Positions 1,935-63,098 of a stretch of DNA of 64,000 nt are shown piece by piece; the stretch's first letter is position 1, and every line of letters starts with the position of its first letter. The notes below the pieces were generated by a model. The model had not been told where the DNA came from and searched no databases. It saw nothing but the letters and a program-made list of their open reading frames with translations. Source of the stretch: Eledone cirrhosa (taxonomy: Eukaryota); assembly GCA_964016885.1 (NCBI GenBank), contig OZ024746.1:5704001-5768000 (forward strand), in the 5' to 3' direction. Position numbers and translations under genes: made by a program.

Positions 1935-2663
1935 ATAATGAAATGACAGGAGGCTGGATTTGTGTAAATCCTTGAAAGGTTTATTATACTAAGATCATTT
2001 CAATGACCGGGTTCCGTATGAATCCGGTGATATCATCAGGTATTCGAAATATAATACGTGAATGTAATAGATAAAATCCATGGGGCTGAAAATCGAGGAC
2101 CCGACCGGTAGTAGTTGCCTTTCTTCTTTTAGCTGACATTAACCCTGGCTTCTTTTCTTCTTTCTTCCCCCTTCTTCTCTCTCCTTCCTTTCTTTCTTTC
2201 TTTTACCTTGTGTCATGAGATCGACGTTAACCTATGCTCCCATCCCTTTTTGTTTTCGTTTATCTGACCGGTAGTAGCATACTATAAACTTTAGCCACGT
2301 CACTCCAGGGCGACCGGCTGAGGTTGAGGGAACAGAATAGCGGTCGCCCTCGGGTCCTCGATTTTCAGCCCCATGGATTTTATCTATTACATTCACGTAT
2401 TATATTTCGAATACCTGATGATATCACCGGATTCATACGGAACCCGGTCATTGAAATGATCATAGTATAATAAACCTTTCAAGGATTTACACAAATCCAG
2501 CCTCCTGTCATTTCATTATAATATTTAACTCCGTAATAGCACCACCAACTACAAAAACAAAGACGGTTGAACTGCTTTACGTTGAGTACTCTCTATATTA
2601 TTGCATTACGATTGATCATACGCAATAGACCAGCTATATACAGTGGTGAACCTCAAACCTGAA
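1935..2663. mobile_element. Fold-back PLE-derived element: ~170-bp inverted arms (1935-2104 / 2350-2519) + ~140-nt tail
   Basis: Near-perfect reverse-complement arms between (TA)n tracts. Confidence 0.88.
2411..2468 (+). ncRNA. Type I hammerhead ribozyme
   Basis: atac-CTGATGA-tatcaccgg...ccggtcatt-GAAA-tgatca-TA-gtat. Palindromic ATGATCAT stem III, AUA cleavage site. Mirror copy on the minus strand in the left arm carries one substitution in stem III. Confidence 0.8.
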
Positions 2664-3998
2664 TATATATATATATATACATAAATATATATATAGGGTT
2701 TTAAAAATGCAATGACTGACCTTTTGGCTATTTAGAAGCTTTCTGTATTACTGTGCTAAGGAATTTGATGATTTTTTTTCAGCTGTTTACAGTCTTTTCA
2801 AAAGACTTTCGTTAGAATCTTCCACGGCCATCATTTTTTCTTTGTCTTCTTTCATCTTATTTCTCTCTTTCCCCACCTTTCTATTCTTCCTTATACTTGC
2901 TGCTCCTGCTGTCACTTCTGTTTGTTATGACTTCTGCCACCCAAACACTTGTGCAGACCTTTCTAGCGGCGGCGGGTTGGTGTCAATAGGAAGTTCTATA
3001 CTTCGCTCTCTGATATGTCAGTTTTGTCTATCTGTTCTGTTAGTTTTGCAATCCAGTGAAGGTTTGGTGTCAACAGCACTCACTATACATTACATATAAT
3101 TGCTGTTATTGTTGTTGTTACAGCTGACACCTATGTAGGTTTAGCTGGCCTCCTACAAGGTTGTATCTCATAAGAGTTTTCTTGGGTGCTTTAATGACAG
3201 GGACCCTAGTCCTATCATATAGGATGATGATAGTTGCTGTGCATGTAGATCAAACCAAATATGGAATCTATGTTCGATTATCATTTGATCTATACCACAT
3301 AGCTCATTATACACTTAGGAGACTCGATCGTAATCAATAGCTTAGAGGAAAGACACCATATGGCAATATGCAATTAAATCACTACAATGCAAAAATTCAT
3401 TCATTGGCAATCCAACGAGATAATACGTGTTACAATGTAACTTCATTTTATGCAGAATGCAAACATGGAAATGGTTTATTTTTGTAGAATATTGCTGACA
3501 TTTACCATATAATGAATGGCGTTTTGTTCATTATATAAAATATCAGTTTATTTAGAAATTAATGTAAGTTTTTAAACGGTAAATTAAAACTTATGTAACT
3601 CAATCCAGAATAAAGTATATTGATTGAAATGAGAATCACTACTAATTACACATTTTGCCAAGAAGATGCAAATATATTTGTTCTGGTAACATAGCATAGA
3701 ATTCTGATTTTTTAGCAGTGTTAAATTCATGGAAGGGATTTTCTATGGCAATTTGATTGCTTACTTGGTCAAAATCCTCCTTTGAAATCTTAAATTCAAT
3801 GATCTGAAATTTGAAAAATCGATTACATAGACAGAAAGGAATAAAATACGTTTACAAAAGATACAAACATTTACACACCTTGCATGAGATTTTATTCTTG
3901 AAAAAGTAGAAATAAATGAAAACATGAAACCTACTTTACTTTCTGAACAACTAACGCATTGTAGTTAAAATGTGTACACATGAACTGTTGAACTGCTA

Positions 3999-4148
3999 AT
4001 GCTTTCCAGCATAGTTACGTCCCTTTACGGTCTGAGTTCAAATCCCGCCGCGGTTAACTTTGCCTTTCATCCTTACGGGTCGATAAAATAAAGTACCAGT
4101 AATACACTGGGTTTTTGCTGGCCTTGTGCCAAAAGTAGAAAGAATTAT
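3999..4148 (+). mobile_element. tRNA-derived SINE (Nin/Deu-like central domain), 5' truncated
   Basis: gagttcaaatccc B-box + gcctttcatccttacgggtcgataaaataaagtaccagt core, repeated many times in the window. Confidence 0.85.
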
Positions 4149-5908
4149 TTCCAATATATATTCAATTGCATGTAATTATTTACTAAATGATCTACAATAG
4201 CAAGCCATCTATACTCAAAAGAGCTGGTTTACAGTAGTACCAAAATGTCATCATCACCAAATTACTAAGGTATGTGTAGTTAAAATAGATTATTTATCGT
4301 CATTATAGGGACTTTTATAGTTAAAAGTAATTATTTAAAACATTCTAATATTACGAACGTTTGAACAGTTGCAGATGTAATAGTTTTAGATACTTTGTAC
4401 CATGGTTTGTATTTAATAAATATTACCTAAAAAATCATTAGAGAGGTTGCCCGGTACTCCTCGCAACGCTGCTGTCTTTTGCTCTGGTGTTGGTTCGGTT
4501 GTTCACCCGTTCTTTTACATCTTTTTAAATATTGCAACATTAAAAGAATATATCCTTCTAAAAGAATCGCGAGCAATTTATAATGTTATCTAAGCATTTG
4601 TAATGTTATTTGTGTATATATTTAAAACACATGTGTTATGTTATTCTACTGTAAATATTGCACTTATCCATTGCTCAAATCTGAAAATAGGGATTTGATG
4701 ATAAGTTTTAATGAATATCTTTGATTATCAATGAAACACTGTAATAATTACTGTGACTAGGCAGCATATTCCATTATGGGTTAATAAAACGTATTCCACT
4801 AAGATACGATTTTTGTGATATGGGTTCATAAGTTCATATTTACATCATGTGTCATGTAATATTTCTTAACACGTGGGTTCGTTAAAGAATTGCCAAAGGG
4901 AAATATACTGGATTCAAACTTTGAATGTTATTGCTACATGATTTAGTTTGTACTATCTGATATTATCTTCGAATCTTACTACAGGAGTAAAATGGTTTTA
5001 TGTGTGGTCCTCCATTCTTTAATATGTTTTTGCCATTATTGATCAAACAATGTTGGAATATTGCCTTAATGTATATCTATACATATTTGTTATTTCGCTT
5101 TTTGTATAAATACGTTGAGACAGGAATTAACATAAACGAATGTAGTTTACATGTAAGTAGAATACGATTGCTTGAAATATCAGTTTTTAATGTGCATTCT
5201 TGGACTGAAAGAATGGATGTAGGGGAAGCATTAATTAAACATGCTAGGAAGTGACCCCAGAATTTGACCGGCATGGTATTCAATCAATGCATCCACTTCC
5301 CTGGCAATCAATACTCGACAAATGTTTATTTCCCCCCATCCCATGTTGGTGAAACAGAGTGAGGAGGCTGGGTGAAGAAAGCGATAATTGCCTGAATACA
5401 TCTACCAATGAATGTACAATAAAGTAAATAAATATCAAATATATTAGATTGTTATCTCCACGTCGTACATTGAGGAGTCACAAAGGGTGGTGAAATTTGG
5501 GGCGAAAAACTAAAATTATAAACAAAACAGAGACTACATAGTAACAAATGTAACCTGATCAGCAAATTATGTATCAATTTTGAAATAATATGATTATATT
5601 TGAACTGAAGGGTGACACAGGAAATATTCACTAAGAGAGGAACAAATGATATTGAAGTTGGGTTTATATGATTCGATTTTCTGATATATGCAGAACGGCG
5701 CCATGCTGCTTACTCAATCAGACCATTAGCAGTTCCACTTGTTTTCCTTAATGGTATTTGTTTATATTTTCGTAGTGACCCTAACATAAACTGCTTTATA
5801 AGAAATCATTAATTTATTTAAAATTAAGTTCCTTTTTGCCAATTACAGTGATGAGGAATGGATCAGTACAACTTCATATTCCATGTATTATCCATGTATT
5901 CCATGTAT

Positions 5909-61832: not shown

Positions 61833-62342
61833 TACAATATATTAACAAATGGAAACTATATTTATAAAACCATATTTATTTCATTATACATATTTCAAGG
61901 GCCACCAGAGCAAACTATGGTGCGCTTTCATCATATAATTGTTTCTAATTTAGGCACAAGGCCAGCAATTTACCAGTACATTACTGGTACTTTATTTTAT
62001 CGACCTCGTAAGGATGAAAGGCAAAGTTAACCTCGGCGGGATTTGAACTCAGATCTTAAAGGGACGTAACTATGCTGGAAAGCATATCCGACCCTCTACT
62101 GATACTACCAATCCACCACCCAGATAAAATATAATATAGGTTAGTTTTATAAATAAATATTGACATGCCCTTAAAAAATGCAACCATTCTTGAGATATGT
62201 ATAATGAAATAAATATGGTTTTATAAATATAGTTTCCATTTAATATATTGTATATTTACTCCAATAATTTGTTGAGTGCTTTATATCAGTTATAAAAATA
62301 TTTTGCTTGTTGTATCCCAACAAATTAAATATAACCTCTGCA
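61833..62342. mobile_element. Fold-back element (arms ~61833-61898 / ~62189-62253) with a SINE between the arms and a tail shared with 44463-44557
   Basis: aaatggaaactatatttataaaaccatatttatttcattatacatat and its reverse complement. Tail ttactcca..gttgagtgctttatatcag...aacctctgca occurs twice in the window. Confidence 0.75.
61935..62122 (-). mobile_element. tRNA-derived SINE
   Basis: Reverse complement of the family core. Confidence 0.85.
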
Positions 62343-62898
62343 TATATATATATATATATATATATATATATATATATATATATATATATAATATATATAT
62401 ATAATATATATATATATAATATATATATATAATATATATATATAATATATATATATATAATATATATATATAATATATATATATAATATATATATATAAT
62501 ATATATATATAATATATATATATAATATATATATATAATATATATATATAATATATATATATATATATATAATATATATATATAATATATATATATATAT
62601 AATATATATATATAATATATATATATATATAATATATATATATAATATATATATATATATAATATATATATATAATATATATATATAATATATATATATA
62701 TATATATAATATATATATATAATATATATATATATAATATATATATATATAATATATATATATAATATATATATATATATATAATATATATATATAATAT
62801 ATATATATATATATAATATATATATATAATATATATATATATATATAATATATATATATAATATATATATATAATATATATATATATATATATATATA

Positions 62899-63098
62899 TA
62901 GGACAATGTTTAACCCCGACGGCAGAGCTCATACCGTTTTGACGGGTAATTCTGGACTCTGAGTCCAGAAATACCCGTCGAAACGGCTTGAGCTCTGCCG
63001 TCGCGGTTAAACATTGTCCTATTATCCACTCTACAACCCTAAGTATTGAGTACTCTGGTGCGTTATGGTCCATCTGGTTCCTTACCACACTTCCTTTT
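62899..63098. mobile_element. Fold-back element, ~60-bp arms + ~78-nt tail
   Basis: taggacaatgtttaacc...ggactc-t-gagtcc...ggttaaacattgtccta, flanked by (TA)n. Confidence 0.82.

Follow-up and report, generated by a model that had tools for sequence, protein, structure and literature searches.

A paired, bulged RNA element in the tails of Hydra-type Penelope-like elements of Eledone cirrhosa

Penelope-like elements (PLEs) are the closest relatives of telomerase reverse transcriptase (RT), and in telomerase RNA, with its template-positioning elements, as well as in hepadnaviral epsilon, a structured RNA fixes where the RT starts or stops on its own RNA. How PLEs choose their RNA and start internally has been addressed by one in vitro study, whose available text leaves the binding motif undefined (PMC11167929). 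In this study, we analysed a stretch of 64,000 nt (the window) of the 3.0-Gb genome of the animal Eledone cirrhosa (assembly GCA_964016885.1, contig OZ024746.1, positions 5,704,001 to 5,768,000), which is rich in (TA)n runs and fold-back insertions. The tails of its Hydra-type PLEs and of non-coding units carry a small predicted bulged hairpin with the consensus R-Y-U-C[stem]...U-H-G-A-R-Y, and full units carry it twice, as motif A and motif B.

In PAc (Poseidon of Anolis carolinensis), reverse transcription begins inside the RNA, at two sites between which the tail lies, and depends on RNA 3' of them; the target DNA that is cut is AT-rich, and both of its strands are extended (PMC11167929, available text). 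The elements described here likewise have two internal starts 3' of a hammerhead, bounding the genomic tail, and an AT-rich target. Unlike here, the binding motif of PAc is, in that text, bracketed only to the first 172 nt of the open reading frame (ORF), and its starts lie in an AC-rich stem-loop. In our elements the region is the 5' untranslated region (UTR), with a separate hairpin downstream of each start. By eye, the roughly 95 legible letters of Fig. S1 of the PAc study hold no clear RYUC..UH-GARY.

With the Hydra clade of PLEs, as far as the excerpted description goes (PMC8557442), the present elements share the CxCX5C linker, the RWK, the C-terminal GIY-YIG, the hammerhead, the (TA)n targets, and an inverted arm with a one-sided tail. 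As published there, the tails measure 30-40 bp and the excerpt names no RNA motif besides the hammerhead, whereas here they are ~55-185 nt long and bounded by two conserved hairpins. Metazoan non-long-terminal-repeat retrozymes are also similar, being non-coding tandem units with a type I hammerhead, and are thought to be mobilised by PLEs (PMC7229834; bioRxiv 10.64898/2026.07.22.740005). The excerpts of these reports name no cis-signal, whereas three non-coding units studied here (F1, F7 and the 574-bp array R574) keep the A/B pair as a candidate signal.

The motif, its two copies and its covariation

The first-pass annotation of the window had listed 12 instances, eight main and four weak, of an ACTC/GAGT helix with a 2-nt 3' bulge, usually TT, and all 12 are present at the coordinates and on the strands given (Table 1). 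The eight main ones all read ACTC..GAGT, with a bulge of TT in six, TC in one and TA in one. The four weak ones are present too, each with one defect: an A.C outer pair (32803 and 24276), GATT in place of GAGT (1341), or just two inner pairs of which one is G.U (36823). The carriers had been called several dissimilar elements, and self-BLAST collapses the 12 instances into eight families, namely 63028/38011, 44474/62258, 61610/36823/1341 and five singletons. The instance at 32803, listed as weak, does hold the motif but is a copy in the second position (motif B), whose A partner on the other strand had been missed.

The original pattern starts 15 times in the window, compared with a mean of 3.1 and a maximum of 9 in 100 block shuffles, and is thus more frequent than in shuffled sequence. 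When all 256 four-base helices in the window were ranked, ACTC came only 8th, so the window alone is underpowered. In an unselected sample of 99 10-kb stretches of the same genome (990 kb), the original pattern had 85 occurrences no more than 130 nt 5' of a (TA)n run and 52 at other places; the corresponding counts were 15 and 28 for a 1-nt bulge, 2 and 32 for a 3-nt bulge, and 20 and 27 for a 4-nt bulge. Fold-backs detected blind to the motif (89 rows, 87 distinct) had the original pattern at -10 to +25 of the arm stop in 26 of 87 cases. A widened pattern, defined only after that fold-back list was seen, was found there in 33 of 87 fold-backs and 13 of 37 families, its reverse complement in none, and shuffles gave a mean of 0.79 and a maximum of 4 (200 shuffles). 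With a stem of at least 3, a 2-nt bulge occurred 29 times at the arm stop, and bulges of 0, 1, 3 and 4 nt occurred 4, 0, 0 and 1 times. Among the best 150 of 182 Rfam matches in the window none covers an instance, a search of nine carrier loci returned one unrelated weak match and no family covering the motif, and a scan of viral contigs found no relatives. The motif is real, and wider than first noted.

The earlier description holds, but it overlooked the second copy in each full unit. Full units are ordered as hammerhead, AU stretch, motif A, AU stretch, motif B and ATG. Mapping of copy ends on read-through units gave two main end peaks per family, and a motif B lies directly past the distal peak in H1, H2, F1 and F6; it is also present in F7 and R574. 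In F3, B was predicted and then seen clean in 11 of 12 rows, two of the rows being one place. The count was limited to ends that lie 5' of the motif and do not differ from the reference; of 105 such exactly mapped ends at 17 sites, 84 have a (TA)n run beginning 6-9 nt before the motif, and 98 have it beginning at a distance of 4-10 nt. The motif therefore does lie past the arm stop as proposed, but at 6-9 nt rather than at 5-15 nt. The ends lie 6-9 nt upstream of either motif, so the interval from A to B is what has been known as the Penelope tail. Fold-backs classified by their joined ends were A+B in 117, A+A in 2, B+B in 2 and unclassified in 3 of 124 cases; those of H1 and H2, where most loci were fetched by protein query, were A+B in 16 of 16.

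Two further observations concern single families. In H1 (L332:2249-2287), an extra ACTC 23 nt before motif B could pair with the 3' strand of B. In F2 copies, including the fold-back of the window, the centre of the fold lies mostly at the 5' edge of the hammerhead core.

Beyond this genome, a profile of 34 Hydra-type proteins retrieved 99 loci in 81 clusters from metagenomes, including marine ones, and from host-contaminated genome bins. External 5' regions were available for 55 loci, which form 42 non-redundant clusters. Two 3' half-sites were present in 32 of these clusters, three in 3, one in 6 and none in 1, with a total of 79 against a shuffle mean of 12.9. The spacing has a median of 56 nt from the hammerhead GAAA to A (n=24), of 64 nt from A to B (range 54-83, n=32) and of 23 nt from B to the first ATG (n=38). 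In the window, too, the motif lies 3' of the hammerhead, as first reported (F1 and F2, Table 1). Seventeen external ends could be placed (77 3' regions, minus 37 unaligned to the 5' region, 22 running to the end and 1 without a motif after it); these are alignment ends, in which the TA overlap is included. All eight that map to B lie 2-4 nt before it, and five of the nine that map to A lie 0-11 nt before it. Two external A calls (L356 and L361) are probably mis-anchored and were kept in the counts. By eye, among six published Hydra consensus sequences in the available part of PMC8557442, three match well, one from a coral and two from sea cucumbers, and one of the three has both copies. Some of the retrieved Hydra-type loci (L428-L448) are filed under bacterial genome bins or symbionts and are most likely contamination by animal hosts.

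The outer helix had been described as ACUC/GAGU. It covaries too, to GCUC/GAGC, GUUC/GAAC and GCAC/GUGC. In 22 host A copies, for which a stem was required in picking, the outer pair is A-U in 12, G-C in 8 and A.C in 2, and the second pair is C-G in 20 and U-A in 2. The inner pairs of external A copies, which were not used for selection, are paired in 32/33, 28/33 and 23/33 copies; the first of them is U-A in 19 and C-G in 12, and this switch requires 7-8 changes on an RT tree, at least 4 of them forced by well-supported branches (a quick-method tree of 36 rows, Hydra-type only). MAFFT misplaced gaps in motifs of mixed length, so the first covariance model (CM) was built from eight copies of equal length. 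When 71 distinct rows were aligned by fitting to a CM, 98% of the cells paired, compared with 82.8% in shuffled rows and 22-55% in slid controls, although such fitted counts lean toward the model. A CM made from non-host sequences returned seven of the eight main window instances as its top seven matches, and missed the long-loop main instance of F5 and the four weak ones. In all five families compared, divergence is lower in the motif columns than in the rest of the tail. The first-pass proposal of a conserved cis-acting element of PLE pseudo-long terminal repeats is thus supported on two counts: the pairs covary in unrelated taxa, and the motif keeps a fixed distance from hammerheads and element ends.

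Position 1 of the bulge is U in 70 of 70 external copies (selection favoured this but did not force it), and the second bulge base is U in 64, C in 20, A in 13 and G in 1 of 98 copies, in which the pairs that follow are G-C in 96, A-U in 95 and G-C in 93. In the transactivation response element (TAR) of human immunodeficiency virus (HIV), recognition by Tat depends on an essential U in the bulge, leaves the second base free, and requires an A-U pair between two G-C pairs (PMC11885821; PMC6189040, excerpts). The order of a bulge U, a free second base, and then G-C, A-U and G-C is thus that of the arginine sandwich motif of HIV TAR and 7SK, and the 2-nt bulge is that of HIV-2 TAR. The conserved bases match the arginine-binding bulge of HIV TAR, whereas arginine binding and a base triple are putative here, as read from the sequence. 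Unlike TAR, the motif is circularly permuted, its loop (3 to ~65 nt) closes the other helix, and it has a conserved 3' ACU flank, paired copies and a few variants with a flipped A-U pair; no homology is implied.

Carriers of the motif and other features of the window

Every motif-bearing tail that could be tied to a coding region led to a Hydra-type ORF, through the upstream endonuclease (F3, F4, F5 and H1; H2 was tied as well) or through the ORF reached after read-through (F6, F3, F2 and F5). Among 34 Hydra-type proteins, C654, C656 and C662 of the CxCX5C linker before the C-terminal GIY-YIG are invariant, and this arrangement is present in H1, H2, F3 and F5. The N-terminal RWK is conserved (R37 in 100%, W38 in 97%, K/R39 in 91%), and DKG is changed to DKT, D120-K121 being kept in 100%, with T at the next position in two of three inspected proteins and S in the third. 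Carriers are inserted in (TA)n and have a hammerhead near the 3' end, several of the host hammerheads having variant cores by eye. F1 (a 2.9-kb unit), F7 and R574 have a hammerhead-like core and both motif copies, and no match to a Hydra ORF was found in them.

In the PLE families W and P, the tails at the loci searched gave no CM match, although the CM also missed two true carriers with a long loop or a variant motif. Four 9-mers had only three stray matches, outside the terminal context, in the Naiad and Chlamys files, and four matches in the six Hydra consensus sequences; in both sets line breaks hide some. Two motif-less rows labelled Hydra proved to be internal points of the F5 3' UTR. 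Hydra families without the motif may exist; most of the 24 motif-less blind families had no ORF tie. Among the PLE families tested, the motif turned up only in Hydra-clade elements and non-coding derivatives, and the Penelope and Neptune libraries, in which the first-pass annotation advised a search, are therefore the wrong place to look.

Table 1. Motif copies and neighbouring features in the window (positions in nt).
Feature	Family	Position	Strand	Remarks
Motif A, decayed	F6	1341-1365	-	GAGT to GATT
Inverted arm of fold-back	F1	1935-2104	-	outer end is start site 1, directly before motif A
Type I hammerhead motif	F1	2411-2468	+	5' of motif A; predicted from pattern and inspection
Motif A, long loop	F1	2528-2587	+	non-coding 2.9-kb tandem unit; tail to ~2663; non-host CM E=0.017
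Neurotransmitter-gated ion channel exons		22577-22888; 25288-25641	+	
Degenerate motif-like stretch		24276-24295	-	~55 nt before (TA)n run; no family tie
Abundant PLE family		25814-26798; 33717-36192	+	ORF 33794-35679; hammerhead core 35948-35975
Motif A	F7	32335-32395	-	non-coding unit; absent from first-pass list
Variant hammerhead, UUGANAA core	F7	32476-32563	-	by eye
Motif B (second copy)	F7	32803-32819	+	
Hammerhead-like motif, UUGANAA core		33061-33148	+	by eye
Motif A, decayed	F6	36823-36847	-	CM E=2.2
Motif A	F3	38011-38034	-	
Motif A	F4	44474-44493	+	3' end of Hydra element; copy truncated directly upstream
Motif A, long loop	F5	50966-51045	-	3' end of Hydra element; fold-back 51053-51523; missed by CM
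Array of 467-bp units		55271-59037		8.1 copies
Fold-back	F2	59495-59596		hammerhead-like core 59544-59582
Motif A	F2	59614-59632	+	read-through copies run into Hydra ORF; B degenerate
Motif A	F6	61610-61634	-	tandem copy (L337) has Hydra ORF after motif B
Motif A	F4	62258-62277	+	fold-back 61833-62252
Motif A	F3	63028-63051	+	autonomous Hydra element; fold-back 62901-63019

The window also contains an abundant PLE family with full copies in L345, a 1217-aa ORF, a CX4CX2C linker, a canonical hammerhead core and a tail that encodes the N-terminus of the protein. Its ORF was considered as a partner of the motif and rejected, as its tail has no motif. The 467-bp units of the array, 99% alike and lying between (TA)n runs, each have a motif resembling a type I hammerhead (37.7 bits against Rfam HH9, below threshold), and neither a Hydra ORF nor an A/B motif was found in the array. 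Hammerhead-like cores with UUGANAA for CUGANGA occur by eye at two places in the window and in L127, L222 and L156, as a possible U3-A8 compensatory variant, and the cores of H1 and H2 are CCGANGA, also by eye. H2 has an ORF of 794 aa in L330, and its long 3' UTR (L330, L331 and L335) contains, in many copies, a (TA)n island ~320 nt past the stop that has apparently been copied as part of the element. Motif B of F2 (L461-L463) is a four-pair hairpin with a five-base loop, and F2 ends lie 5-9 nt before it, which makes it a natural minimal variant. Several elements lie near or between the ion channel exons. A Pfam search gave nothing for the PLE fragments of the window.

A candidate docking site for the reverse transcriptase

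We propose that the A and B hairpins of the Hydra clade are candidate docking sites which position the RT at two internal starts, and we give this reading a probability of about 0.7. Each hairpin lies 3' of its start and outside the stretch copied from that start, and therefore fits a positioning site. Of the roles first suggested, that of an RT loading site fits best, and that of a template boundary, which needs an antisense template, is less likely. The template would be a read-through tandem RNA, as for the anole PAc. The protein may bind the bulge, probably in the manner known from TAR, with arginine contacts and a U.A-U triple; a candidate for the binding part is the R-W-K helix specific to Hydra, its role being a guess, and the invariant R37 falls in a predicted helix (18-44). 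The 3' end of the nicked (TA)n would pair with UA 6-9 nt upstream of the helix and prime there; such priming by nicked target DNA would set the motif apart from telomerase RNA and epsilon, as does its place 3' of what is copied. If one nicked target strand primes at A and the other at B, a head-to-head insertion with a one-sided tail would result, and non-coding arrays may retain both copies so as to be mobilised in trans. A search with the protein model for similar folds gave telomerases as the best matches, as expected for any PLE, and no solved structure of a close relative was found.

A more detailed version is possible, though doubtful as a whole: on one read-through RNA, the two TAR-like hairpins ~64 nt apart would dock two RT-endonuclease subunits through the arginine helix, each priming one (TA)n strand at its own start. 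The head-to-head insertion with its one-sided tail would then be programmed twin priming, and the A/B pair would be the minimal portable signal for the mobilisation of non-coding retrozymes.

Several observations weigh against the docking reading. The 1217-aa-ORF family of the window has three equally sharp end peaks and no bulged motif, and PLEs can therefore set their starts otherwise. In the published Hydra set (PMC8557442, available part), one coral element is weak, the sea-louse element is deviant and the octopus element has none by eye. The predicted B of F5 was a clear long-loop motif in one of three copies, mutated in one and unseen in one, and that of F2 was only a bare GCAC/GUGC hairpin with no inner helix in 3 of 3, yet F2 starts there. 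Because the queries for many host loci contained the tail, B ends are over-represented, and the excess of A+B is alone no proof of one RNA or of a dimer.

The fold itself also counts against it at several points. The second inner pair of motif B is paired in 20 of 37 copies and is U.U in 11. Folding z-scores of -2.2 to +0.8 (six stretches) are unremarkable, the mean probability of the first inner pair is 0.37 in A and 0.29 in B, and that of the outer helix is below 0.3 in 7 of 13 window instances. In F3, the 5' strand of A can pair with the 3' strand of B instead. A ratio of G.U to A.C of 21 to 13 gives weak support for the sense strand, and the GCAC/GUGC variants (L428A, L431B and F2B) invert the pair expected to take part in the triple. 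As modelled, folding is only marginally stable, and the structure is probably stabilised by protein.

We consider it unlikely that the motif is read as double-stranded or extruded single-stranded DNA by the GIY-YIG endonuclease, which would nick its own pseudo-long terminal repeat and so build tandems. GCTC..GAGC is an inverted repeat, the Penelope endonuclease of D. virilis needed tail sequence to cleave (as cited in the available text of PMC11167929), and some full-length copies start at the AU stretch right before motif A (L373 and L435). Against such a DNA site, however, the spacer ranges from ~6 to 70 nt, the inner pairs covary at a fixed, one-sided offset of 2 nt, and the predicted ends lie in unrelated genomic (TA)n targets without the motif.

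A function of the hairpins, through protein binding within the 5' UTR, in translation control or in RNA packaging, with the nearby ends merely reflecting AU-rich priming, also appears improbable. The proximity of B to the first ATG is what such a function would predict, and the 12 nt upstream are 77% A/T. However, motif A is ~100-130 nt from the ATG, both copies are kept in units without a Hydra ORF, and the ends are phased to the helix at the 17 sites despite other TA nearby.

Even less credible is an antisense RNA template, on which the hairpin would be a telomerase-like boundary halting synthesis. On sense RNA the copied region is 5' of the helix, and only with an antisense template would the helix stand where a telomerase template boundary does. 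An antisense self-priming model has been proposed (PMC3846280, excerpt), the strand asymmetry is weak, and the best structural matches are telomerases. Nevertheless, TA is shared with the target at the precise ends and the opposite ends are variable, which is the polarity of sense-strand target priming, tailed copies run through A, and PAc primes internally, with 5' truncation of its RNA shortening the product (PMC11167929, available text). Finally, chance matches or shared descent without function are scarcely tenable: although the pattern is short, the 12 instances are only eight families and folding energies are unremarkable, the chance part is already refuted by the shuffle and geometry controls, and the compensatory changes repeated among elements that share about 35% protein identity, with the lower motif divergence within families, argue against the remainder.

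Implications for Penelope-like elements and retrozymes

In the PLE and retrozyme literature searched, as far as its available text goes and with Repbase entries and some supplements outside its scope, we found no account of the motif, and it is apparently an undescribed, clade-wide, paired RNA element of Hydra-type Penelope elements. That the tails are one-sided was known before; the new point is the presence of one and the same RNA signal at either end. An element of 20-30 nt, duplicated and phased to both starts, would be a direct explanation of the one-sided tail. It would also supply a cis-signal linking retrozymes to their helper elements, would permit the assignment of non-coding repeats to a clade, and would mean that the RT of a retroelement has converged on the bulge geometry of TAR.

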